Below, piece after piece: positions 2,892 through 29,309 of a stretch of DNA of 31,897 bases. The translations under genes were made by a program, and so were the position numbers. A model generated the notes under the pieces. That model saw only the letters and a program-made list of their open reading frames with translations. It did not search any database and was not told where the DNA came from. This stretch comes from a virus (lineage: Duplodnaviria > Heunggongvirae > Uroviricota > Caudoviricetes). The number at the start of each line of letters is the position of its first letter. Position 1 is the first letter of the stretch. The DNA is taken from the IMG/VR virus record IMGVR_UViG_2724679539_000006, positions 1-31,897 of that record; one strand, 5' to 3'.

Positions 2892-3275
2892 TTAGAAGGG
2901 AATTGAATCGTCGTATTCAGGATGATTTTGATGATTGCTACTTTGTTGCTGTTGGCTGTTTCCTGAAGTTGCAAATCCAATCTTTGCATTCAGTAATTCA
3001 AGAGTGATTGATTGACCATTTTGCCCCTGATAAACATCAACCCTGATGTTTTCTCCGGTAATTTCCACAATGCCACCTTCAACCAGAACGCTACGATAGT
3101 AATCCGCTTGCGCTCCCGGCTTGGCAAATACAACGGCGCTGTAGTTTGTCCATTCTTTCTTTTTTGTCTGGCGATCGTAATACTGAACGCCAGCACGGAT
3201 GTTGAATCCGATATTTTCCCCGGCCTGAAACTCTCTTGCGGGTTTGTTTAGTCTTACAGTAATCGAATGTGCCAT
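2892..3275 (-). CDS. ssb: single-stranded DNA-binding protein (SSB family)
   Basis: OB-fold-like sequence ending in the SSB acidic tail motif DDSIPF; ATG at 3275 overlaps the erf stop (TAATG), implying translational coupling. Confidence 0.7.
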   Translation of the reverse strand: MAHSITVRLNKPAREFQAGENIGFNIRAGVQYYDRQTKKKEWTNYSAVVFAKPGAQADYYRSVLVEGGIVEITGENIRVDVYQGQNGQSITLELLNAKIGFATSGNSQQQQSSNHQNHPEYDDSIPF

Positions 3276-3880
3276 TAAGCAGCCGCTCCTTCTAATTCGT
3301 CTCGTCTGATGTTGTAAACGTCCTGCGCTTTGTGCTGCTCCGGTGTGCCTTCGAGCATCTTCCACGCTTTGGCGAACGCCTGTTTAAGCTCTTCTACGGT
3401 GTTTTTCTGCATTGCTGCGTCAGTGAATGCTTTTAGAACCTGTTCAGGTGTAGGTGATGGTTTTGATTGCTTTGCTGCTGCGTTCTGCTGATGTTTATGC
3501 TCGTCTGTATCTGCATCTTTCGCATCATCAATGCCGAACAAACCATTGAGGCAATACTTGCGTGCATAAGAGCTTGTAGCTCCTGTAACTTGTGCAGAAT
3601 CCATTCCTTTCTTGCTTTCTTCCTCTCGTGCAAGAGCGGTTGCCGTATGACTGTTTTCGCCATCGGTAATAGTTGCCGTGGCTTTCACGTAATACCGATC
3701 ACCAATCAACACAACTTCATCGCTGATTGATAAAAACAGGCCATTCAGTAACGGCTTAACGCCTTCAAGAATGTCTTCGCAGCTTCTGTATTTATATTTA
3801 CCGAATGAGTTGTACTGATTCTTTGGCGCGTTCAGATTCTCCTGAATAGCTGCCAGTCTTGCGTAAAATTCTTTGCTCAT
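3275..3880 (-). CDS. erf: Erf single-strand annealing recombinase
   Basis: MSKEFYARLAAIQENLNAPKNQYNSFGKYKYRSCEDILEG... matches P22 Erf as recalled; ATG start at 3880 (track start is an upstream TTG). Confidence 0.8.
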   Translation of the reverse strand: MSKEFYARLAAIQENLNAPKNQYNSFGKYKYRSCEDILEGVKPLLNGLFLSISDEVVLIGDRYYVKATATITDGENSHTATALAREEESKKGMDSAQVTGATSSYARKYCLNGLFGIDDAKDADTDEHKHQQNAAAKQSKPSPTPEQVLKAFTDAAMQKNTVEELKQAFAKAWKMLEGTPEQHKAQDVYNIRRDELEGAAA

Positions 3881-3969
3881 ATGTTTGTTCTCAGAATGGA
3901 CATGGCCCAAGGAAATAACGCTGATTTAATACTTCAGTCTTTGCCGCATTTAAAAATACGCGAACACCT

Positions 3970-4140
3970 TCACGATCTCCCTTCTGGCGATACATTAACG
4001 CCTGCTGCGTGTACATGCGTCTCTGTAACTTGCTCTCCTTCACTGTGGTTGCAAGTGACATGAATATCTCCTTCGTTACCGATTAATTCTTTCATCTGAC
4101 GAATGAATTCTTCGTCTGACCAGTTATCTGTAAAACTCAT
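3970..4140 (-). CDS. hypothetical small protein (56 aa) at the kil position
   Basis: ATG at 4140 forms an ATGA overlap with the cIII stop; identity as Kil not verifiable from sequence. Confidence 0.4.
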   Translation of the reverse strand: MSFTDNWSDEEFIRQMKELIGNEGDIHVTCNHSEGEQVTETHVHAAGVNVSPEGRS

Positions 4141-7578: not shown

Positions 7579-7725
7579 ATGACAAAACAACTCAGTCCTT
7601 ACCAGGACAAAATTCACAAACACATACTACGTGATCGCTTCCTGTCCAGCTTCAAGCAGCCTGGTCGATTCCGGGCTGAGTTGGAAAAAGTGAAGCTGAT
7701 GCAGAAGGAGAAAGGTCATGAGTAA
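7579..7725 (+). CDS. small hypothetical protein (48 aa, [21 protein letters not shown]...)
   Basis: not in ORF track; AGGAG 5 nt upstream of ATG at 7579; 3' end overlaps the O-like start by 8 nt. Confidence 0.35.
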
Positions 7726-8578
7726 TCTTGCAACCATAACACATTTAAGGCCTTCACAACGGCCTGTGGAGCGTCGTGTGGCAGAAGTTGAAGATGGTTA
7801 TACCCGTCTTGCAAATGCCCTGTATGAAGAGCTTATCGGCGCAGATTTAACGAAAAATCAGAGCAAGGTTGCCCACGCCATATGCCGTAAAACATACGGC
7901 TACGGTAAAAAGATGGATCGCATCTCTGATAGTCAGTTAGCTCAAATTACCAGGCTGCCAAGACAGAAGGTAAACAAGGCCAAGAATGAGCTTATCGCGA
8001 TGAAGGTTATCCTTCGCGAAGGCCAGCAAATCGGGCCTAACAAGAACATCGAAGAATGGCAAATCGAAGGGTGTCACTACTCTGGTGATAATGTCACTGC
8101 ATTGGTGACAAAAAGTGTCACCAAAACGGTGACAGCGCTGTCACCAAAACAGGGACACACAAAAGAAACTATTACAAAAGAAAAAAGAAATAATAAAAAC
8201 ACTATGTCCGAAAGTGTTCGGACGGAGTGTGAAAAATCACCTGACCGTCACGAAGAAATCGACAAGGCATTCGAGGAAATATTCTGGTGTGCAGGCATGC
8301 GGAAAGCCGGGAAGAAAAACGCAGCTTCGGCATTCAGAACACAGTTCAGGGAATGGCGTAAAACTACCAGGGGTACGGCAAGCGAGTTTGCCACGATGCT
8401 GGCAGAAGACATCGCATGCAGGAATGGTAAGCAGTTCGGATTCGACAGGTTGTTACCATCGAGCTACCTGAACGGTCAGCGCTGGAACGACGAGAAGCCA
8501 GAAACTATTCAACCACAATCCAAACCATCATCCGCAATCACCGTATCGAAAACTGGCTACGTGTTTTTCGACAGGTGA
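7718..8578 (+). CDS. O: replication initiator, lambda-O-like N-terminal domain with a different C-terminal domain
   Basis: N-terminus [14 protein letters not shown]...DLTKNQSKV...[25 protein letters not shown] resembles lambda O; AAGGAG RBS; iterons lie inside the gene. Confidence 0.75.
8071..8210 (+). repeat. candidate replication origin: palindromic iterons (GGTGACA-N4/5-TGTCACC) followed by an AT-rich tract
   Basis: at least three dyad iterons at 8084-8145 spaced by AAAAC, then about 50 bp A/T-rich (8160-8210); same layout as lambda ori inside O. Confidence 0.5.
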
Positions 8579-8685
8579 ACCATGAAATCAAAAATCAAAT
8601 CGCTACTGGTCGCTGGTTATAACCACGGCTGGTTAAGTATTTCGTTTGTCGATTTCTGGTTTAAAAATCTCAATCTGAGGGAATC

Positions 8686-9180
8686 ATGATGAGCCTTGAA
8701 GTTGGAGAATATATACCTGGTTATGAGGGTAAATACTCTGTAACCAAAGACGGTCGTGTTTATTCACATTTAAGAGGCAGGTTTTTGAATCCATCTCCGG
8801 ATAACAAGGGTTATCTAAGAGTCACTTTGTGTTCCGATGGGATTCAGAAGACGTTAAAAGTTCATCGTCTTGTAGCTCAATTATTTATCCCAAATCCGTA
8901 TTGCAAGCCAGAAGTAAATCATATCAACGGCGACAAATCGGATAACGCCATTTGGAACTTGGAATGGTGTACCTGCTCAGAGAATTTAAAACATGCTTTT
9001 AGCATCGGACTGAAAAGCGCAAAGGGAGTTTTTAATGGTAGGGCAAAACTATCTGAAACTGATGTGATTGATATCAGGAATTCTGTTGGTATGAAACTAA
9101 GCGAACTATCCACTAAATACGGAGTGAGTGAAATGCAAATTTCCACAATCCGCAGAGGAAACGCATGGAGGCACCTTTGA
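8686..9180 (+). CDS. HNH homing-endonuclease-like protein (NUMOD4-like N-terminus + HNH + C-terminal HTH)
   Basis: GYEGKYSVTKDGRVYS motif, then HRLVAQLF...NHINGDKSDNAIWNLEWCTCSEN (HNH); GAGGGAA RBS. Confidence 0.75.
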   Translation: MMSLEVGEYIPGYEGKYSVTKDGRVYSHLRGRFLNPSPDNKGYLRVTLCSDGIQKTLKVHRLVAQLFIPNPYCKPEVNHINGDKSDNAIWNLEWCTCSENLKHAFSIGLKSAKGVFNGRAKLSETDVIDIRNSVGMKLSELSTKYGVSEMQISTIRRGNAWRHL

Positions 9181-11057
9181 GTCCATCAGAACTCAGTGAC
9201 CTGCTTTGGGCGCAGGTTGACAGGGTGGCTCCGCACCTGTTGCCAAACGGCAAGAAAGAGGGGCATGAGTGGGTTGCCGGTAACGTCAACGGTGACAAGG
9301 GAAACAGCCTTAAGGTCAACCTTAGCGGCAAGAAAAAATGGGCTGATTTCGCTGAGGGAGACGGCGGTGACATGCTTGATTTGTGGATGGCATGTCGTGG
9401 AATTAACCTGCATCAGGCTATGCAGGAAGCGAAAGCCTTTCTCGGAATCAAGGATGACGATCACCATTTCGATGCCAAACGTGAGAAGAAATTCTCCAGA
9501 CCTGACCGCAAGAAAATCGCCCGCTACGTTACCAGAACAGAATCCCATCTTGAGTACCTGCAATCGCGTGGCATATCGCCAGAAATCGTAAAACGCTACG
9601 AGGTTGTCAGCGGCAAGGTGTGGAATGGAGAGCGAGAACTGGATGCTCTGGTGATTCCGTACAAACGCGATGGTGAGTTGTTGCAGGTAAAGCGAATCAG
9701 CACTGAGCGCCCGGACGGGAAGAAAGTCATTATGGCAGAAGGTGATTGCGAACCTTGTCTGTTCGGATGGCAGGCTCTGGACGCTGGCGTGAGGGCGGTT
9801 GTACTTTGCGAAGGCGAAATTGATTGTATGAGCTATGCGCAATACGGCATCTCGGCGTTATCCGTGCCGTTTGGTGGCGGGAAAGGCGCTAAGCAACAGT
9901 GGATTGAGTTTGAGTATCACAACCTCGACAGGTTTGAGGAGATATTCATCTCGATGGACGTTGATGATGTTGGTCGTGAAGCCGCAAGGGAAATCGCAAG
10001 CCGACTCGGTGAACATCGTTGCCGTCTTGTTACTCTGCCGTACAAAGACATCAACGAATGCCTGATGAACGGTGTTACCGAGGATGAAATCTGGCAGTAC
10101 ATCGGCACGGCATCCTACTTCGATCCTGAAGAACTCTACAGTGCGCGAGAGTTTTACCAGGACACTATCAACGCTTTCTACGGCAAGCAGCAGTATCTGT
10201 TTAATCCACCGTGGGAATCTCTGGCAGATAAATTCCAGTTCCGTGAGGCAGAGTTGACGCTGGTCAATGGTGTGAACGGTCACGGAAAAACGGAGGTTGT
10301 CGGGCATATGGCACTTGAGGCAATGCGTCAGGGTGTGAAGACGTGCATCGCGTCACTTGAGCTGAAGCCAGGCATTCTCCTTAAGCGACTTACCCGTCAG
10401 GCAACGTGCTGCAAGATGCCGCCAGTGCTGGAAATTGACTCTGCATTTAAATTTTATGACGAAAGACTTTGGGTGTTTGGCCTGACCGGAACGGCGAAAG
10501 CCGACAGGCTGATCGAAATATTCGACTACGCTCGCCGCCGATACGGTATCCAGTTATTCATCATCGACAGCCTGATGAAATGTGGCATAGGCGACGATGA
10601 CTATAACGGGCAGAAGGCGTTTGTTGACTCGATTTGCGACTTCAAAAACAAAACAAACTCCCACGTCATTCTCGTTACTCACTCGCGAAAAGGAGACAGC
10701 GAAGAAAAACCAACCGGGAAAATGGACGTAAAAGGCTCTGGAGCGATAACAGACCTGACAGACAACCTTTTCATCATCTGGCGTAACAAGGCTCGCGAGA
10801 GAGCGTTACAGAGAGTTCAGAGTGGTGAAAAGATGTCAGAGAAGGACGAACAGCTACTGGCATCTCCGGCATCTGTTTTGATGCTTGAAAAACAACGTAA
10901 CGGCGAAGGTTGGGAGGGTGGTGTCCCGTTGTTCCTTGACGAGCAATCGCACCAGTTCCTGCAACTTGAATCAGGATCGCCATATAGCTACATCGCCAAT
11001 ATGCCGAAATCGGAATATGACGAGGCGTGGCGACAGGAAAACGTGACGGAGTATTAA
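9165..11057 (+). CDS. bifunctional DNA primase-helicase (TOPRIM + RecA/DnaB-like helicase)
   Basis: TOPRIM acidic motifs (CEGEID, MDVDDVG); Walker A NGVNGHGKTE; Walker B LFIIDSLMK; 630 aa. Confidence 0.8.
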   Translation: MEAPLSPSELSDLLWAQVDRVAPHLLPNGKKEGHEWVAGNVNGDKGNSLKVNLSGKKKWADFAEGDGGDMLDLWMACRGINLHQAMQEAKAFLGIKDDDHHFDAKREKKFSRPDRKKIARYVTRTESHLEYLQSRGISPEIVKRYEVVSGKVWNGERELDALVIPYKRDGELLQVKRISTERPDGKKVIMAEGDCEPCLFGWQALDAGVRAVVLCEGEIDCMSYAQYGISALSVPFGGGKGAKQQWIEFEYHNLDRFEEIFISMDVDDVGREAAREIASRLGEHRCRLVTLPYKDINECLMNGVTEDEIWQYIGTASYFDPEELYSAREFYQDTINAFYGKQQYLFNPPWESLADKFQFREAELTLVNGVNGHGKTEVVGHMALEAMRQGVKTCIASLELKPGILLKRLTRQATCCKMPPVLEIDSAFKFYDERLWVFGLTGTAKADRLIEIFDYARRRYGIQLFIIDSLMKCGIGDDDYNGQKAFVDSICDFKNKTNSHVILVTHSRKGDSEEKPTGKMDVKGSGAITDLTDNLFIIWRNKARERALQRVQSGEKMSEKDEQLLASPASVLMLEKQRNGEGWEGGVPLFLDEQSHQFLQLESGSPYSYIANMPKSEYDEAWRQENVTEY

Positions 11058-12278: not shown

Positions 12279-12445
12279 TTGACCCAAATCGAAGTTACGA
12301 ACAAGAAAGCGTCGAGCGGGCTTTAACGTGCGCTAACTGCGGTCAGAAGCTGCATGTGCTGGAAGTTCACGTGTGCTCCGATTGCTGCGCAGAACTGATG
12401 AGCGATCCGAATAGCTCAATGTACGAGGAAGAAGACGATGGCTAA
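12275..12445 (+). CDS. ninF: NinF
   Basis: not in ORF track (56 aa); GTG start overlapping the ninE stop; ...[24 protein letters not shown]...[15 protein letters not shown] resembles lambda NinF. Confidence 0.55.
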
Positions 12446-13004
12446 ACCAGCGCGAAGACGATGTAACCGTAAAAGAGAAGATTTAACTGTTAAAAGGATA
12501 TTTGAGTTACTAAGTTTCGATAAATCTACCGGGGTATTTAGATGGAAAGTTCCCACTCAGGGAAGGATAGCATTAAATAGTATTGCTGGAACTTTTGATT
12601 CCAACGGTTATTCAATGATCATGATAGATGGGCGTAGATATAAAACTCACGTCTTAGTTTTTTACATAACTCATAATCGTTGGCCTGCTGGTCAAATTGA
12701 CCACGTCAATGGAATTAGGACCGACAATAGGCCAGAAAATTTAAGAGAATGCCTGCCAATAGAAAATTCAAGAAATATAAGGATCCGAAAGAATAGCAAA
12801 TCAGGTTGCAGAGGAGTTACTTGGCACAAACGACAGAAAAAATGGAATGTTAGGCTAGGTTTCCATGGCAAGAGTAAACACTTCGGATGCTTTGATGATC
12901 TGGAGTTAGCGGTACTAGTTGCTGAAGAAGCCCGAGATAAGTATTACGGTGATTTTTCCGGCAACGAAAGGAGCACTTATGCGAATCTATCGAAGGAAAT
13001 GTAA
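12438..13004 (+). CDS. HNH endonuclease with AP2 DNA-binding domain
   Basis: [34 protein letters not shown] (HNH) followed by [37 protein letters not shown] (AP2-like); first 9 codons MAKPARRRC equal the lambda NinG start as recalled. Confidence 0.75.
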
Positions 13005-18735: not shown

Positions 18736-18770
18736 TGCTCAACCTGAAATAACAACTAAGTGAGATGAAT

Positions 18771-19259
18771 ATGGCAGCACCAAAGGGCAACCGATTTTGG
18801 GAGGCCCGCAGTAGTCATGGGCGAAATCCTAAATTCGAATCGCCTGAGGCGCTGTGGGCTGCTTGTTGTGAATACTTCGAGTGGGCTGATGATAACCCGC
18901 TATGGGAGGGTAAGGTATTTTCATATCAGGGAGAAATAATTAAGGCTAATGTCCCTAAGATGCGAGCCATGACTATTTCAGGATTGTGTACCTTCCTTGA
19001 TATCACCAGGCAAACATGGGGAACCTTCCGGTCAATGGAAGGTTTTTCTGACGTCACATCACGAGCGGAAGACATCATCTACGACCAGAAATTCTCTGGC
19101 GCAGCCGCTGACCTTCTCAACGCTAACATCATCGCCCGTGATTTGGGCCTCAAAGAGCAGTCGCAAGTTGAAGACGTGACACCTGATAAGGGAGATCGCG
19201 ATAAGCGACGCTCTCGTATCAAGGAGCTATTCAACCGTGGAACTGGACGCGATTCTTGA
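18771..19259 (+). CDS. 3: terminase small subunit (P22 gp3 type)
   Basis: [44 protein letters not shown]...; 162 aa from ATG 18771, the P22 gp3 length. Confidence 0.8.
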
Positions 19260-20736
19260 TAACCTGAGCGACGAAGAGCAAATCGAATTGCTCGAGCTAC
19301 TCGAAGAAGAAGAGAACTACCGGAACACACACCTGCTATATGAATTTACGCCATACAGCAAACAGCGTGAGTTCATCGACGCCGGGCATGACTATCCAGA
19401 GCGATGTTTTATGGCTGGTAACCAGCTTGGTAAGTCATTTACTGGTGCTGCTGAAGTCGCGTTTCACCTTACCGGGCGTTACCCGGGCACAAAAGGCTAT
19501 CCTGCTGATGGTAAATATGGCGGTGAGTGGAAAGGTAAGCGTTTCTATGAGCCTGTTGTCTTCTGGATTGGCGGCGAGACAAACGAGACGGTAACCAAAA
19601 CGACTCAACGCATCCTGTGCGGTCGTATCGAAGAGAATGATGAGCCTGGCTACGGTTCCATACCGAAAGAAGACATCATTAGCTGGAAGAAGTCTCCTTT
19701 CTTTCCGAACCTTGTTGATCATCTTCTGGTTAAGCATCACACGGCTGATGGCGTTGAAGATGGAATTTCAATCTGCTACTTCAAACCATACTCGCAAGGC
19801 CGTGCTCGCTGGCAGGGTGACACAATCCACGGCGTGTGGTTTGACGAAGAACCACCATACAGCATTTATGGTGAAGGCCTTACCCGTACCAACAAATACG
19901 GGCAATTCTCAATTCTGACGTTTACCCCGCTGATGGGGATGTCTGACGTTGTTACCAAGTTCCTGAAGAATCCCAGCAAGTCGCAGAAAGTGGTCAACAT
20001 GACCATCTATGACGCTGAGCACTACACAGACGAACAGAAAGAGCAAATCATCGCATCCTATCCCGAGCATGAGAGAGAGGCGCGTGCTCGCGGTATTCCT
20101 ACGATGGGTAGCGGGCGAATCTTCCAGATACCGGAAGAGACGATTAAGTGTCAGCCGTTCGAGTGTCCTGATCACTTCTACGTAATTGGCGGGATGGATT
20201 TCGGATGGGATCACCCACAGGCGCAGGTTCAGCTTTGGTGGGATAAGGACGCAGACACAATCTACGTTTCACGCGTGTGGAAGGCGAAAGAAAAAACAGC
20301 CGTTCAGGCATGGGGAGCCGTAAAATCATGGGCGCATAAAGTGCCAACCGCATGGCCTCATGACGGAAACCAGCATGAGAAGGGCGGCGGTGAGCAGCTC
20401 AAAGGGCAGTATGCCGACGCTGGTTTTATGATGTTGCAGGAGCATGCGACATGGCCTGATGGCGGTAACGCTGTGGAGCCTGGCATCACTGAATTGCGCG
20501 ACATGATGCTCGATGGTCGCTTCAAAGTATTCAACACCTGTGAGCCATTCTTTGAGGAGTTCCGCCTCTATCACCGTGATGAAAATGGGAAAATCGTCAA
20601 GCTTAACGACGACGTTCTCTCAGCCGTTCGCTATGCATACATGATGCGCCGCTTCGCCAAAATGATGCGCGACATCAAAAAACCAAAAGAGAAAAAGATA
20701 CCAGCCCCAATCAGGCCCATCGCACGGAGAACTTAA
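19237..20736 (+). CDS. 2: terminase large subunit (P22 gp2 type)
   Basis: 499 aa with GTG start after AAGGAG; ATPase and nuclease regions typical of P22-like TerL; overlaps terS 3' end. Confidence 0.9.
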
Positions 20737-22902
20737 ATGGCCGACGAAAACAGACTCAATTCCATTCTGTGTAAGTTTGACGCGGACTGGATGGCGAGCG
20801 ATGAAGCCAGAACCGAGGCGACAAATGACCTGTATTTTAGCCGAGTGTCGCAATGGGATGACTGGCTATCAAACTACACCACCCTGCAATATCGCGGACA
20901 ATTCGATGTTGTCCGCCCGGTGGTCAGGAAGTTGGTCGCAGAGATGCGCCGGAACCCTATCGACGTTCTCTTCCGACCAAAAGACGGTGCTAATCCTGAT
21001 GCAGCCGATGTGTTGATGGGGATGTATCGTACTGATATGCGCCATAACACGGCAAAAATTGCCGTTAACGTTGGCGTTCGTGAGCAGATAGAGTCCGGCG
21101 TTGGTGCATGGCGTCTGGTCACGCAGTACGAAGACAACGATCCAACAAGCAACAATCAGGTAATTCGACGCCTGCCAATTCATGAAGCCTGCTCACACGT
21201 CATATGGGACGCCAACAGCAAGCAGATGGATAAGAGCGACGCTAAGCACTGCACGGTGATTAACGCCTTGTCGCGCAATGGCTGGAAAGAGTTCGCAGAG
21301 GATTACGGTATTGATCCGGACACCTTGCCATCTTTCCAGAATCCGAACGATACATGGCTGTTTCCGTGGGTATCGAATGATGTCGTCTACGTCGCTGAGT
21401 ATTACGAGGTCGAAGAGAAGAAAGAGAAAGTCTTCATCTACCGCGACCCGCTGACAGGTGAGCCGGTCAGCTATTACCAGCAGGATATCAAAGACGTCAT
21501 CGACGACCTGGCTAATCGTGGATTCATTAAGGTAGCAGAGCGCAAGGTGAAGCGTCGTCGTGTGTATAAGTCGATCATCACCTGCACGCAGATACTGAAA
21601 GACCGAGAAAAGATAGCCGGAGAGCATATCCCAATCGTTCCAGTATATGGAGAATGGTCATTCGCTGGTGACAAGGAGTGCTACGAGGGAGTGGTAAGGC
21701 TGACGAAAGACGGTCAACGCCTTCGGAACATGATCATGTCGTTCAACGCCGATATTGTTGCTCGTTCACCGAAGAAGAAACCGACCTTCTTCCCTGAGCA
21801 AATCGAAGGCTACGAATACATGTACGGTGGAAATGATGACTATCCGTACTATCTGCAGAACAGGACCGATGAAAACGGTAACGACCTGCCGATTGGTCCA
21901 ATCTCCTACATGGAAAACCCTGAAGTGCCGCAAGCCAACGCTTACATGCTTGAGGCTGCCACCAACGCAGTGAAAGAGGTGGCTAGTCTTGGCGTGGATG
22001 CGCAGGCAGCAAACTCTCAGGTCGCTTTCGATACCGTCAATCAACTGAACATGCGGGCAGATCTTGAGACATACGTGTTTCAGGATAACCTGGCTACTGC
22101 AATGCGACGTGATGGCGAGATTTATGCCTCAATGGTCAACGATATTTATGACGTTCCTCGTCATGTAACGCTGACACTTGAAGATGGAAGCGAGAAAGAC
22201 GTTCAACTCTATGCGCAAGTTGTCGATTATCAGTCCGGCAATGTGGTCACACTCAACGACATTCGTGGTCGCTATGAGTGCTATACGGACGTTGGGCCAT
22301 CCTTCCAGAGCATGAAGGAACAGAATCGCGCAGAGATTCAGGAGTTGCTAACAAAGGTTCCGCAAGGTACTCCAGAGTTCCAGATGCTGATGTTGCAATA
22401 CTTCACGCTGCTTGACGGTAAAGGCGTCGAGATGATGCGAGAGTACGCGAACAAGCAACTGGTGATGATGGGGCTGAAGAAACCAGAAACACCTGAAGAG
22501 TTGGAGATGGTACAACAGGCGCAACAGCAGCCGCAGCAGCCATCAGCAGAGCAAATTCAGGCGCAGGGTATCCTTCTGCAAGGTCAGGCTGAATTGCTCA
22601 AGGCAGAGAACCAACAGGCGCAGATTCAGGTTGAAGCCGCCAAGGTTGAAGCCCAAAACCAACTCAACGCCGCGAAGATTGCAGAAATCTTCAACAATAT
22701 GGACCTCGACAAGCAGGCAGAACTGCGTGAGTACCTCAAGCTCGTAGGTCAATTCCAGCAACAGCGCAGCAAAGATGCTCGTGCTAACGCTGAGCTGCTT
22801 CTTAAAGATGCAGACCAGACTCATTCACAACGCATGGATTTCGCGAATCTTATGCGTCAAGTTCAAATCCCCTCCGGCGGAGTAGCCGAGACACCTCAAT
22901 AA
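20737..22902 (+). CDS. 1: portal protein (P22 gp1 type)
   Basis: 721 aa; Q/E-rich C-terminal coiled-coil region as in the P22 portal barrel. Confidence 0.9.
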
Positions 22903-22915
22903 GAGAGAGTTAACC

Positions 22916-23827
22916 ATGGACCAAACCACCGACATTCAGGCTTCTGAAGAATTAACCCTGCCCGGCAATCATGCAGCGGCATCTGCTGATGGCTTAGTTG
23001 TCGATAATGCCAACGACATCGCAGGTCAGGAAGAAGGCTTCGAGATTGTCCTGAAAGACGATGAGAAACCAAAACAAGACCCGGCAACTAATGCTGAATT
23101 TGCCCGTCGCCGCATCGAACGCAAACGCCAGCGTGAGCTTGAGCAGCAGATGGAAGCGGTTAAGCGTGGAGAGTTGCCGGAGCACCTGCGGGTGAACCCT
23201 GAGTTACCAAAACAACCAGACCCTAACGATTATCTTTCCGAAGATGCACTGGCTAAGTACGACTATGACCAGAGCCGCGCACTGGCTGCCTTCCAGCAGG
23301 CAAACAGTGAATGGCAGATCAAGGCTATGGACGCACGAAGCCAGGCTGTCGCCGAGCAGGGTCGCAAAACTCAGGAGTTCACCCAGCAATCAGCGCAATA
23401 CGTCGAGGCAGCCCGTAAGCACTACGACGCAGCGGAAAAGCTCAATATCCCTGACTATCAGGAGAAAGAGGATGCATTCATGCAACTGGTGCCGCCAGCA
23501 GTCGGTGCCGACATCATGCGCCTCTTCCCGGAGAAATCCGCTGCTCTCATGTATCACCTTGGTGCTAATCCTGAGAAAACACGCCAGTTGCTGGCGATGG
23601 ACGGGCAATCCGCGCTGATTGAACTCACTCGACTGTCAGAACGTTTAACTCTCAAGCCTCGAGCCAAGCCTGTTTCAGAAGCCCCGTTACCTGATGAACC
23701 AATTCAGGGACACGCTGTTGCTGCAAATATCTCTGCGATTGAAAAGCAGATGGAAGCGGCAGCAAACAAAGGGGATGTAGAGACATACCGCAAGCTCAAG
23801 GCGCAACTGAATAAAGGAATTCGATAA
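22916..23827 (+). CDS. 8: scaffolding protein (P22 gp8 type)
   Basis: 303 aa; C-terminus ...[13 protein letters not shown]...[18 protein letters not shown] resembles the P22 scaffold coat-binding helix-turn-helix. Confidence 0.85.
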
Positions 23828-25122
23828 TGGCATTAAATGAAGGTCAACTGGTCACGTATGCTCTGGATGAAATCATCGAAACCGTCCAGAACCTGACGCC
23901 AATGGCGTCCAAAGTGACAAAATACACCCCTCCGGCAGAATCCATGCAGCGTTCAAGCAACACCGTGTGGATGCCTGTTGAGCAGGAAGCGCCAACCCAG
24001 ACTGGCTGGGATTTAACTGGCAACGCAACCGGGATTCTGGAACTCTCCGTGAAATGCAACATGGGCGATCCGGATAACGATTTCTTCGAGCTTCGTGCAG
24101 ATGACCTGCGTGATGAGCGTTCTTACCGTCGCCGCATCCAGGCATCCGCCAAAAAACTGGCGAATAACATTGAGTCAGCGATTGCCAAACAGGCAACTGA
24201 AATGGGCTCGCTTGTTGTTCACGATACCCGCGCAATTGGTCCATCTACTGGCCTGTCTGGCTGGGATTTTGTGTCTGATGCAGAGCGCCTGATGTTCTCC
24301 CGTGAGCTAAACCGCGATATGGGCATCAGTTACTTCCTGAACCCTGACGATTACCGCAAAGCAGGCCGCAACCTGGTAGATGGCGACATCTTCGGGCGAG
24401 TTCCTGAAGAAGCGTATCGCAACGGTACTATTCAGCGTCAGATTGCTGGCTTTGATGAAATTCTTCGCTCACCGAAACTTCCGGCAGTTACCAAGTCAAC
24501 CGCTACTGGTGTAACTGTTTCTGGTGCGCAGAAGTTTAAGCCGCAGGCATACACCCTTGATACCGATGGTAACAAAGAGAACGTCGATAACCGTGTTGCA
24601 ACGGTGACCGTATCCTCCACCACCGGATTTAAGCGCGGCGACAAAATCAGCTTCACTGGTGTGAAATTCCTGTCTCAGATGGCGAAGAACGTGCTAACTG
24701 ATGATGCGACTTTCTCAATCACCCGTGTGATCGATAGTACTCACATCGAAATCACGCCGAAGCCGATTGCACTTGATGACGCGTCACTGACAAAAGAAGA
24801 GAAGGCTTACGCTAACGTAAACACCTCTCTTGCTGATACCACTCCGGTAAACGTTCTGAACGTGGCAACAACCACCGCTAACGTGTTCTGGGCTGATGAC
24901 TCAATCCGCCTGCTGTCTCAGCCGATCCCGGTAACCCATGAACTGTTTGCTGGTATGAAAACGTCTTCCTTCAGCATTCCTGGTATTGGTGTTAACGGCA
25001 TCTTCGCAACGCAGGGTGATATCAACACTCTGTCTGGTAAGTGCCGTATTGCTGTGTGGTATTCAGCATGTGCTGTACGACCAGAGGCAATTGGTGTTGG
25101 TCTGCCTAACCAGACCGCGTGA
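23827..25122 (+). CDS. 5: major coat protein (P22 gp5 type)
   Basis: 431 aa, [20 protein letters not shown]...; start overlaps the scaffold stop (TAATG). Confidence 0.9.
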
Positions 25123-25415: not shown

Positions 25416-25893
25416 TTTAGTTCTTGCGGCATTACGTAAGCTCGGTGTGGCATCAAATGCCACGTTAACCGATGTCGAACCGCAGTCCATGGAAGATGGC
25501 GTCAACGACCTTGAAATGATGATGGCTGAATGGCTTGGCGGTGATGTGTCACCTGGTATCAACGTTGGCTACATTTTTGCTGATGCAGATGTCGCTCCAG
25601 ATCCGGGAGATGAGCACGGATTATCAAATAACGCTATAAATGCCGTCATTTTCAACCTTGCCTGCCGCATTGCTCCAGATTATGCGCTGGAAGCGTCAGC
25701 AAAACTTATAACCACTGCCAGATACGGGAAAGAGCGACTCGTCAAACTGTCTGCAATGGACAGAGCAAAAGCCGCTAAATGTAAGTCCGGTTATCCAAAC
25801 CGTATGCCTGTTGGCAGTGGAAACCAGTTGGCGAAGTGGAACGGTTGGAATTACTTCCACCGAAAGGAACCTTGCGATAACGGGAGCGAATAA
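25393..25893 (+). CDS. 4: head completion / tail accessory protein (P22 gp4 type)
   Basis: 166 aa from ATG 25393, the P22 gp4 length; ...[28 protein letters not shown]... resembles gp4. Confidence 0.8.
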
Positions 25894-27311
25894 TGCCGAT
25901 TCAGCAACTTCCGCTTATGAAAGGTGTCGGCAAAGACTTTCGAAACGCCGACTATATCGACTATCTGCCAGTGAATATGCTGGCTACACCAAAAGAAATC
26001 CTTAACAGCAGCGGATATCTTCGCTCATTCCCGGGCATTGCCAAACGTTCTGATGTGAACGGTATATCGCGCGGCGTCGAGTACAACATGGCGCAGAGTG
26101 CCGTTTATCGCGTGTGTGGTGGCAAGCTGTACAAAGGCGAAAGCGAAGTCGGTGACGTCTCCGGAAGTGGTCGCGTATCAATGGCGCATGGTCGGACATC
26201 ACAGGCGGTAGGCGTTAATGGTCAACTGGTCGAGTATCGTTATGATGGCACGGTTAAAACAGTCTCAAACTGGCCTACAGACAGCGGATTCACGCAGTAT
26301 GAGTTAGGTTCTGTTCGTGACATTACGCGCTTACGCGGGCGTTATGCGTGGTCAAAAGACGGCACTGATTCATGGTTTATCACTGACCTTGAAGACGAAT
26401 CGCATCCTGACCGCTACAGCGCACAATATCGCGCAGAATCGCAGCCGGACGGTATCCTCGGCATCGGCACATGGCGAGACTTCATCGTCTGCTTTGGTTC
26501 ATCGACGATTGAATATTTCTCCCTGACTGGTGCAACCACCGTTGGTGCAGCTTTGTATGTCGCACAGCCATCACTGATGGTGCAAAAAGGCATCGCCGGG
26601 ACTTACTGCAAAACGCCATTCGCTGATTCTTATGCGTTCATCAGCAATCCGGCAACTGGTGCGCCGTCTGTATACATCATCGGCTCCGGTCAGGTATCAC
26701 CAATCGCTAGCGCGAGCATTGAGAAAATCCTCCGCTCCTACACTGCTGATGAACTGGCTGATGGCGTGATGGAATCGTTGCGATTTGATGCGCATGAGTT
26801 GCTGATTATCCACCTTCCGCGCCATGTTCTCGTGTACGACGCATCTTCAAGTGCCAATGGTCCGCAATGGTGTGTGCTGAAAACAGGCCTGTATGACGAT
26901 GTGTACCGCGCTATCGACTTCATTTACGAAGGCAATCAGATAACGTGCGGCGATAAGCTTGAATCGATGACAGGAAAATTGCAGTTCGATATCAGCAGCC
27001 AGTACGACAAGCAACAGGAACACCTGCTGTTTACTCCGTTGTTCAAAGCAGATAACGCCAGAGTTTTCGACCTTGAAGTTGAATCTTCAACTGGCGTTGC
27101 GCAGTACGCTGACCGCCTGTTCCTATCGGCAACCACTGACGGCATCAATTACGGACGTGAGCAGATGATTGAACAGAATGAACCGTTCGTTTACGACAAA
27201 CGCGTTTTGTGGAAGCGAGTAGGGCGCATCAGGAAAAATGTCGGCTTCAAATTGCGTGTTATCACTAAGTCACCTGTCACTCTGTCAGGCTGCCAGATAA
27301 GGATCGAGTAA
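25893..27311 (+). CDS. 10: tail accessory protein (P22 gp10 type)
   Basis: 472 aa, same length as P22 gp10; TAATG coupling with gp4. Confidence 0.85.
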
Positions 27312-28159: not shown

Positions 28160-28614
28160 TGATTCAGTTCAAACCAACGCGAAACATCGACCTGATCGAA
28201 GCAGTCGGAAATCACCCTGACATTATTGCCGGGAGCAACAACGGTGATGGATACGACTACAAGCCTGAATGCCGTTACTTTGAGGTTAACGTGCACGGTC
28301 AGTTTGGCGGCATTGTTTACTATCAGGAGATTCAGCCGCTGACATTCGATTGCCACGCCATGTACCTGCCAGAGATTCGCGGCTTCAGCAAGGAAATCGG
28401 GCTGGCGTTCTGGCGATACATTCTGACTAACACCACCGTTCAGTGCGTCACATCGTTCGCTGCGCGCAAATTCCGCCACGGTCAGATGTACTGCGCAATG
28501 ATTGGCCTTAAGCGTGTAGGAACCATCAAGAAATACTTCAAAGGCGTGGATGACGTGACTTTTTACAGCGCCACACGCGAAGAACTAATCGACTTCCTGA
28601 ATCACGGGAGATAG
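28159..28614 (+). CDS. 14: gp14-type assembly/ejection-associated protein
   Basis: assigned by synteny (between needle and gp7) and size; ATG 28159 overlaps the needle stop. Confidence 0.55.
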   Translation: MIQFKPTRNIDLIEAVGNHPDIIAGSNNGDGYDYKPECRYFEVNVHGQFGGIVYYQEIQPLTFDCHAMYLPEIRGFSKEIGLAFWRYILTNTTVQCVTSFAARKFRHGQMYCAMIGLKRVGTIKKYFKGVDDVTFYSATREELIDFLNHGR

Positions 28615-28616
28615 CC

Positions 28617-29309
28617 ATGTTATATGCATTTAAGCTGGGCAGAAAACTGAGCGGCGAGGAACCTTGGTGCCATGAAAAAGGCGGGAAAGGTGGTAGCTCT
28701 GATAAAAGCGCAAAGTATGCAGCAGAAGCTCAGAAGTATGCCGCAGACCTGCAAAATCAGCAGTGGCAGACGATCATGAAAAACCTTGCTCCGTTCACGC
28801 CTCTTGCGGAGCAGTATGTTAACCAGCTTCAGAACCTTTCCAGTTTAGAAGGTCAGGGGCAGGCACTTAATCAGTATTACAACTCTCAGCAGTATAAAGA
28901 CCTTGCAGGTCAGGCTCGTTACCAGAGTCTTGCTGCTGCGGAGGCTACGGGTGGACTTGGTTCGACAGCCACAAGCAATCAACTGGCTACGATCGCGCCG
29001 ACACTCGGTCAGTCTTGGTTATCAAACCAGATGAGCAATTACAACAATCTGGCAAACGTTGGGCTTGGTGCGCTGCAAGGTCAGGCAAACGCCGGGCAGA
29101 CGTACGCCAACAACATGAGCAGCATTGCACAGCAAAGCGCAGCTCTTGCCGCTGCTAATGCCAACAAACCATCAAGTCTTCAGACAGCAATTAGTGGCGG
29201 AACGTCTGGTGCGATTGCCGGTGCAGGTCTTGCCAGCCTTTTGGGGACATCAACACCTTGGGGCGCTGGCATTGGTGCTGGTATCGGATTGCTTGGCTCG
29301 TTGTTTTAA
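28617..29309 (+). CDS. 7: ejection protein (P22 gp7 type)
   Basis: 230 aa, MLYAFKLGRKLSGEEP...; Gly/Ala-rich C-terminus; GGGAGA RBS. Confidence 0.75.
   Translation: MLYAFKLGRKLSGEEPWCHEKGGKGGSSDKSAKYAAEAQKYAADLQNQQWQTIMKNLAPFTPLAEQYVNQLQNLSSLEGQGQALNQYYNSQQYKDLAGQARYQSLAAAEATGGLGSTATSNQLATIAPTLGQSWLSNQMSNYNNLANVGLGALQGQANAGQTYANNMSSIAQQSAALAAANANKPSSLQTAISGGTSGAIAGAGLASLLGTSTPWGAGIGAGIGLLGSLF

Follow-up and report, generated by a model that had tools for sequence, protein, structure and literature searches.

The window analysed here is a stretch of 31,897 nucleotides (nt) of a virus of the Caudoviricetes (IMG/VR record IMGVR_UViG_2724679539_000006, positions 1 to 31,897). It belongs to an Escherichia coli-type lambdoid phage, and the element under study is a gene for an HNH endonuclease in its early-right operon, where an O-type initiator gene, a 35-codon open reading frame (ORF), the HNH ORF and a primase-helicase gene follow one another. 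An original prediction, made from the sequence alone, had placed an HNH/NUMOD4-like ORF between two replication genes, with a 35-codon frame upstream that ends in an overlap with its start. Both were found at 8686–9180 and 8582–8689, respectively, the neighbours matching Phage_rep_O and the phrog_239 primase/helicase, and the TGA of the small frame overlapping the ATG of the HNH ORF (ATGA, 8686–8689). The features of the locus are the following.

7718–8578: O-type initiator gene, the left neighbour (Phage_rep_O, E = 1e-37).
8582–8689, plus strand: 35-codon gene of the ES18 gp60 type (phrog_21848, E = 4e-26), on the left flank of the insertion site and outside the mobile unit.
8686–9180, plus strand: HNH endonuclease ORF of 164 amino acids (aa) with an ATG start, I-HmuI-like, with NUMOD4, HNH_3 and a C-terminal three-helix helix-turn-helix.
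8690–9188, no strand assigned: mobile cassette of 499 nt, which takes the place of 8 nt (CGCCAAGT) found in the unoccupied allele and lengthens the locus by 491 nt.
8710–8829, plus strand: NUMOD4 DNA-binding region, residues 9–48 (Pfam).
8857–8988, plus strand: HNH_3 catalytic region, residues 58–101, including the invariant N78, H79 (CAT, 8920–8922), N91 and N100.
9055–9153, plus strand: predicted C-terminal helix-turn-helix from the structure model (helices 124–132, 138–145 and 149–156).
9165–9179, plus strand: replacement translation start of the primase-helicase, inside the 3' end of the HNH ORF (ATG 9165–9167, GGAGG 9167–9171, TTG 9177–9179).
9183–9188, plus strand: two codons (CCATCA, Pro-Ser) that accompany the cassette in each of the 10 occupied E. 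coli-type alleles.
9165–11057, plus strand: primase-helicase, an ORF of 630 aa from 9165 (Toprim_2, AAA_25; DnaB_C below cut-off; phrog_239), the 5' end of which is the presumed target of the HNH enzyme.

The presence or absence of the HNH gene was evaluated in three collections. A megablast search of 7718–11057 against 50,697 phage records recovered the O, small ORF and primase module with the HNH segment missing in every record; the HNH-free carriers included mEp043, Sf101, vB_EcoP-720R6, SEN22, ES18, epsilon34, g341c, several Stx2a phages and others. When the HNH region itself was used for a nucleotide search of the same records, the matches were confined to the 108 nt of its left flank and the gene was not recovered; occupied alleles were therefore drawn from E. 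coli chromosomes and from IMG/VR. The HNH gene was found in 5 of the 293 module loci present among 5,426 complete E. coli genomes, in 4 of the 80 closest primase loci of IMG/VR and in none of the 27 module loci of species-representative genomes from several genera. Overall, it was missing from about 95–98% of otherwise near-identical O, 35-codon ORF and primase-helicase modules. The original prediction had proposed to look for a presence/absence polymorphism in the interval between O and primase; the outcome was clearly positive, with empty-site alleles forming the large majority.

The limits of the inserted unit were determined by pairwise BLAST and direct reading of the sequences. The unoccupied allele reads ...GGGAATCATGA-CGCCAAGT-GAACTTAGCGACCTG..., in which the ATG is the start of the primase and overlaps the TGA of the small ORF; in mEp043 or Sf101, the junction is ...GGGAATCATGACGCCAAGTGAACTTAGCGACCTG... 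The window reads ...GGGAATCATGA, followed by the 499-nt unit from TGAGCC to GAGTCCATCA, and then GAACTCAGTGACCTG... The inserted unit is 8690–9188 rather than the ORF limits 8686–9180, and the same junction was found in nine of the ten occupied alleles. Since 499 nt replace 8 nt, plain deletion of the cassette cannot restore the empty sequence, and the two states must therefore interconvert by recombination with a template. The GC content of the cassette (0.40 over 8690–9182) is below that of the primase gene (0.51) and that of the whole window (48%), which points to a foreign composition.

One further allele at this junction, L012 (E. coli RMDEC465, NZ_CM177019.1, ~2273–2415), had neither the HNH gene nor a simple empty site. 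The last codons of its small ORF were replaced and followed by an unrelated, non-coding-looking filler of ~125 nt with the palindrome GGCGTTTAAACGCC, and its primase begins with ATGAGTCCATCA, whose Ser-Pro-Ser codons are identical to those that end the HNH cassette on the right. The 125-nt filler was forced onto the HNH gene by MAFFT, and this alignment was disregarded after reading of the sequence.

The cassette is closely integrated into the operon. The GAGGG Shine-Dalgarno sequence and the ATG used by the HNH ORF are those of the primase when the site is empty. Its conserved C-terminal codons (...A-W-R-H-L, GCATGGAGGCACCTTTGA) contain ATG 9165, GGAGG 9167–9171 and TTG 9177, the last being in frame 5 nt downstream of GGAGG and overlapping the HNH stop codon (9178–9180) by 4 nt (TTGA). 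Translation from TTG 9177 gives a primase-helicase of 626 aa that is colinear with the product of the empty-site allele, and this start is the one picked by the RefSeq annotation in occupied prophages. The 16-nt overlap with the primase-helicase described in the original prediction holds if ATG 9165 is used, whereas TTG 9177 reduces it to 4 nt. The primase start is ambiguous between the two codons, and either leaves the primase-helicase intact. In orthologous loci, the primase starts with GTG (Cronobacter and the metagenomic prophage) or TTG (Enterobacter); in Pantoea, the HNH ORF ends earlier and is followed by a separate AGGAGG-ATG and then the primase. A scan in and around the cassette detected no terminator, with promoter-like sites no more frequent than by chance. 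Because the cassette provides the primase with another Shine-Dalgarno sequence and start codon, the element appears to avoid polar effects on the essential downstream gene. As these signals lie within the HNH ORF, its simple deletion would remove the start signals of the primase.

An HNH gene encoded in a group I intron was also considered and rejected. No intron model was matched, no Rfam family was found in 8000–9800 at E ≤ 1, and the flanking genes are complete, merely abutting each other in empty alleles.

The 164-aa protein was assigned by both sequence and structure comparisons. NUMOD4 was matched with E = 1.6e-10 (41.5 bits against a cut-off of 23.4; Pfam, residues 9–48) and HNH_3 with E = 2.3e-9, above the curated Pfam cut-off (residues 58–101), and the ORF matched the PHROG family phrog_59, "HNH endonuclease", with E = 1e-56. 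RefSeq names it "NUMOD4 motif-containing HNH endonuclease". I-HmuI (1u3e) was the sole PDB chain matched by sequence (E = 7e-14, residues 10–151). An AlphaFold model built from 36 homologues (mean pLDDT of 92.6) presented N-terminal beta strands, an HNH core, a long helix and three C-terminal helices (124–156). When the model was compared with the PDB by Foldseek, 1u3e was again the sole significant match (E = 4e-9, 168 columns, TM score of 0.58), although the orientation of the domains differs between the two (root-mean-square deviation of 8.3 Å); I-PpoI, which shares the His-Me finger core, and assorted helix-turn-helix proteins scored next, without significance. Residues H60, N78, H79, N91, N100 and H103 are invariant across the alignment of the 36 homologues, and H79 pairs with the catalytic His75 of I-HmuI by the offset of the sequence alignment to 1u3e. 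Since NUMOD4, the HNH core with its His and Asn residues, a C-terminal helix-turn-helix and the 1u3e match are all present, the protein is predicted to be of the I-HmuI type by every sequence and structure criterion applied.

The spread of the cassette was studied by comparing the flanks of 85 E. coli-type alleles (10 occupied and 75 unoccupied), with diversity calculated over the nine distinct occupied alleles. The cassette had a single segregating site in 499 nt (nucleotide diversity, pi, of 0.0004), whereas 27 sites segregate over the 540 nt on the left (pi = 0.014) and 36 over the 1100 nt on the right (pi = 0.010), a diversity of the cassette about 25–35 times below that of its flanks. All nine left haplotypes of the occupied alleles were different, as were all nine right haplotypes, and for nearly every occupied allele the closest flank was that of an unoccupied one. 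In the left flank, no differences were found between occupied L005 and unoccupied L010, or between occupied L128 and unoccupied L009, L057, L064 and L091; in the 1100 nt of the right flank, occupied L004, L006 and L007 were identical to unoccupied L084, L062 and L083, respectively, whereas occupied alleles differ mutually at 5–21 right-flank sites. The proteins O, repressor and Cro are identical between the occupied prophage elppa4 (L005) and the unoccupied Cambodian isolate L010. The near-invariance of the cassette, the varied flanks and the proximity of occupied flanks to unoccupied alleles together indicate that the cassette recently entered many pre-existing haplotypes, with exchange points that lie no more than a few nt from its ends.

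The prophages that carry the cassette are themselves distinct. Four occupied E. coli prophages differ in integrases, immunity regions and head modules: TUM1880 lies beside ybhC and has lambda-type packaging and head genes, VREC0864 also lies beside ybhC and has a PBSX-type terminase, elppa4 is located at tRNA-Thr with P22-type packaging and head genes, and 19AR1321 lies beside torS, also with P22-type packaging and head genes. These differing backgrounds could, taken alone, be explained by shuffling of whole replication modules.

On the right side, CCAAGT occupies the position of 9183–9188 in all 76 unoccupied alleles that fit the junction pattern, and CCATCA is found there in the ten occupied ones. 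Of the changes to the right of the insert in E. coli-type alleles, the AGT>TCA codon alone goes with the cassette, and it would represent either a co-converted donor marker or a target-site variant. The idea that five synonymous changes right of the insert form an immunity patch was discarded, as two of the five, 9194 and 9197, are ordinary polymorphisms that unoccupied alleles also show.

Orthologues at the identical site were found in Cronobacter sakazakii (81% aa identity), a metagenomic prophage (75%), Enterobacter roggenkampii (73%) and Pantoea (62%). All the closest protein relatives outside E. coli occupy this site with the same ATGA coupling on the left, and unoccupied alleles are also present in those genera. 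The pairwise ratios of nonsynonymous to synonymous substitution (dN/dS) among the orthologues were 0.10–0.17, and the protein has therefore been kept functional by purifying selection. The synonymous divergence (dS) of the HNH gene between the window and three of the lineages (0.66–1.2) fell below the value for the initial 400 codons of the adjacent primase (1.9 or saturated), a contrast that is rough since the compositions differ but that suggests movement of the HNH gene between lineages after the primases had diverged. CCATCA follows the primase start in four of the five occupied lineages, and the codon variants of unoccupied alleles across the genera were AGT, AGC, GGC, GGA, GCC, GCT, TCT and, once, TCA. 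These distributions are consistent with CCATCA having probably been carried along with the cassette; as an immunity change it is not proven. Overall, the HNH lineage has been faithful over the long term to one site across several genera.

With good confidence, the segment 8690–9188 can be regarded, on the sequence evidence, as the cassette of an active or recently active free-standing homing endonuclease gene. The original prediction had favoured a mobile homing endonuclease over a packaging HNH, and the precise optional insertion, the low diversity of the cassette, the I-HmuI-type protein and the site-faithful orthologues all agree with it. We infer nuclease activity, a cut position, self-immunity and a spread driven by the endonuclease, which would be combined as follows. 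An HNH enzyme of the I-HmuI type, composed of a NUMOD4 DNA-binding region at the N-terminus, a beta-beta-alpha-metal catalytic core and a helix-turn-helix at the C-terminus, would be expressed from the early-right operon through translational coupling to the upstream 35-codon gene. When an occupied phage and an unoccupied relative meet in one cell, by co-infection or by infection of a lysogen, the enzyme would introduce a nick or a cut into the unoccupied allele, in or close to the junction between the 35-codon gene and the primase, or in the 5' end of the primase, and repair by homologous recombination would copy the cassette from the occupied genome. Protection of the occupied allele would come from the splitting of the site by the insertion and from the variant CCATCA codons that arrive with it, and the downstream essential gene would remain unharmed, the original ATG of the primase being taken over by the HNH gene and a replacement Shine-Dalgarno sequence and start being supplied by the 3' end of the cassette. 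For nicking HNH enzymes of the I-HmuI group, a role in homing is established, with action at a distance of a few nt from the point of insertion (PMC3428280), and homing endonuclease genes cluster beside essential phage genes (PMC10448857).

Several observations weigh against this interpretation. The occupancy is only ~2–5%, so that the cassette is not sweeping through the population. The detectable co-conversion amounts to the 6 nt CCATCA, the next polymorphic sites (9194 and 9197) being already mixed among the occupied alleles, although with a flank divergence of ~1% the resolution is low. In other genera, a few unoccupied alleles likewise have CCATCA or CCATCT. Lambdoid phages recombine freely, and an inert cassette in conserved flanks could be moved by ordinary homologous recombination. 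Finally, the exceptional occupied allele L005 (elppa4, NZ_CP083512.1, ~19990–20030) has 4 extra nt at its left junction (ATGA+CGCC+TGAGCC), CGCC being the first four nt of the empty-site octamer. Its HNH frame no longer matches the ATG and runs in phase with the stop codon of the small ORF, a mini-ORF of five codons (MTPEP and a stop) is created, and RefSeq annotates a shortened HNH protein of 155 aa. Because ATGATG is found in the orthologues of three of the other four lineages, the L005 junction is considered derived, and this allele may be an imprecise repair product or a decaying, inactive copy; in the first case, one may speculate that the end of the recipient extended 4 nt or more beyond ATGA.

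The alternative that survives best, though it is considered unlikely, is that the gene is a passenger "moron" moved by general recombination, its HNH protein serving the phage in some other way, such as marker exclusion or the processing of replication DNA. The highly conserved flanks would permit ordinary recombination, the low frequency of the gene and its retention at one site over large evolutionary distances fit such a passenger, purifying selection is equally expected of a useful gene, and the unrelated filler of L012 indicates that the junction tolerates insertions. However, the protein is of the I-HmuI homing type along its whole length, and a diversity 25–35 times below that of the flanks, with exchange points a few nt from the cassette ends across numerous independent haplotypes, is the pattern predicted by break-stimulated gene conversion and unexpected from random crossovers. 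Moreover, competition and homing are compatible for the I-HmuI group of enzymes.

Less probable still is a function of the HNH protein within the replication module itself, for instance as a nickase that works at or near the origin together with O and the primase-helicase, which would account for its conservation at this position. Its location between the initiator and the primase-helicase, the translational coupling on both sides and the same-position orthologues under purifying selection in several genera could be read in this way, but ~95–98% of near-identical modules do without the gene, including those of the viable mEp043, Sf101, ES18 and epsilon34, unoccupied alleles exist with flanks identical to occupied ones, and the composition of the cassette is foreign. 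A packaging-associated HNH assisting the terminase, as in HK97 gp74 and as some phage HNH proteins do (PMC10448857), is effectively refuted by position and distribution, since the gene lies ~9.6 kb upstream of the terminase genes within the replication module, its NUMOD4 and helix-turn-helix architecture is that of I-HmuI, the identical cassette is found alongside P22-type, lambda-type and PBSX-type terminases, and the window itself has P22-type headful packaging genes (GP3_package, Terminase_6N/6C and P22_portal at 18765–22902), in agreement with the P22-type headful terminase named in the original prediction.

The 35-codon gene on the left flank was also characterized. It was found beside the primase gene in Escherichia, Salmonella, Citrobacter, Enterobacter, Pantoea, Xenorhabdus and Providencia, with 54–100% aa identity, and this distribution, together with the match to phrog_21848 and the counterpart ES18 gp60, indicates a conserved gene rather than a chance frame. 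Its product of 35 aa (MKSKIKSLLVAGYNHGWLSISFVDFWFKNLNLRES) is conserved and translationally coupled with the Toprim primase-helicase in many Enterobacterales prophages and may be a small partner of the primase-helicase. A second allelic form, with ~70% aa identity to that of the window, stops 3 nt before the primase start without overlap, and was found in the IMG/VR loci L050, L110, L111, L120, L122, L125 and L126. In these seven loci, the primase is 97.5–99% identical to that of the window and the O gene, in six of the seven, only ~85% identical. The second form appears to mark another mosaic boundary at the same junction.

Other elements of homing type were observed in related phages and elsewhere in the window. 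In the Stx2a-converting phage Stx2_16002 (L003, LC645439.1, ~3105–4128), the Walker A loop of the primase-helicase carries an in-frame insertion of ~341 aa (...GVNGHGK[ACPL...THN]TEVVGH...), which gives a single ORF of 968 aa and falls between positions 10287 and 10288 of the window. The insertion presented weak matches to Hint (below the Pfam cut-off) and LAGLIDADG_3, and is probably an intein with a homing endonuclease. From a three-piece BLAST pattern, the same interruption seems to be present in Stx2a_F403, F451, 24B, Min27, phiXuzhou21 and phiKp_30. With this probable intein and the HNH cassette, two homing elements of unrelated kinds would therefore have struck the primase-helicase gene.

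A second free-standing HNH gene is located at 12438–13004 (plus strand) of the window, in the nin region after ninF. It encodes 188 aa (HNH_3, E = 4e-11; weak AP2; phrog_99), has a GC content of 0.39 and is only ~29% identical to the HNH gene at 8686–9180. At the same position, to judge by annotation, TUM1880 (L004) has a 567-bp gene named "HNH endonuclease", and a KilAC antirepressor gene is found in L005–L007. This gene is probably another optional gene of homing type, HNH with AP2 being a described homing endonuclease architecture (PMC10448857). The TUM1880 prophage (NZ_CP135706.1, 20001–28879) is unusually rich in HNH genes for a lambdoid prophage, with three intact annotated ones (23788–24375, 25668–26234 and 28367–28879) and one HNH fragment besides the gene studied here, and with an ISVsa5 insertion directly after the primase-helicase gene.

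A broader view, offered only tentatively, is that this HNH lineage is more than a simple parasite: a specialist of one junction in the ES18/mEp043-type replication module across Enterobacterales that is hard to lose, since the primase start is taken over and its replacement signals lie in the HNH coding sequence, and that may serve as a weapon against rival lambdoid phages and prophages. With the probable LAGLIDADG intein of Stx2a phages, acquired independently, the primase-helicase would be a repeated target of homing elements in temperate coliphages. Nicking of the primase-helicase gene of a rival would favour the inheritance of the phage's own replication module (marker exclusion).

The locus would offer a natural and uncomplicated case of intronless homing among temperate lambdoid phages and prophages, the classical model of free-standing homing endonucleases being the lytic phage T4 (PMC10448857). 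Occupied and unoccupied alleles that are identical in one flank and near-identical in the other are available, with the cultured phages mEp043, Sf101 and ES18 as possible recipients, and could be used to measure the share of nuclease-driven gene conversion in lambdoid mosaic boundaries. The enzyme is also a possible source of a new site-specific nicking activity. For annotation, caution is advised in that the gene is best treated as neither a packaging nor a replication component, and the start of the downstream primase is ambiguous in occupied alleles.

Compared with known systems, free-standing HNH homing endonuclease genes are well known, and no new kind of system is described here. Literature searches returned no description of this site-specific HNH lineage; a paper on lambdoid recombination modules mentions sporadic HNH genes in general terms only. 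In intronless homing as generally described (PMC2790892), cleavage is presumed to fall in the neighbouring gene of the empty allele, and recombinational repair copies the element. The HK97 gp74-type packaging HNH is likewise of the HNH superfamily and found in a lambdoid phage, but differs in position, domain architecture and distribution. The HNH genes of T5-like phages, annotated as "DNA endonuclease I-HmuI", "HNH endonuclease IV" or "HNH homing endonuclease", share ~42–44% aa identity over ~95% of the length and are free-standing too, but lie at other genomic sites and in lytic phages.

The closest structural counterpart is I-HmuI of the Bacillus phage SPO1 (PDB 1U3E), which has the same three-part architecture (174 aa, against 164 aa here) and is likewise tied to an essential phage replication gene. 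The protein studied here is 26% identical to it over the structural alignment, and the position of Asp74 in I-HmuI corresponds to the invariant Asn N78 (by the offset of the sequence alignment to 1u3e). The relatives of I-HmuI, namely I-HmuII, I-BasI, I-TwoI and I-PfoP3I, are nicking HNH homing endonucleases. The members of this group have their coding sequences within group I introns located in DNA polymerase or nrdE genes (PMC3428280), whereas the gene studied here is free-standing and has no intron.

In its genetic arrangement, the locus can be compared with the T-even phages. In these, the nuclease gene also lies between, or at the edge of, essential genes, is optional among close relatives and has precise empty sites. 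The seg and mob genes, such as mobE between nrdA and nrdB, are free-standing homing endonuclease genes. Their hosts are lytic T4-like phages, whereas the host here is a temperate lambdoid phage or prophage, and the DNA-binding modules of the Mob proteins are of the zinc-finger type, whereas those of the protein studied here are of the I-HmuI type. Unlike the seg and mob genes, the HNH gene described here has no promoter of its own, shares overlapping stop and start codons with both of its neighbours and supplies the start signals of the essential gene downstream.

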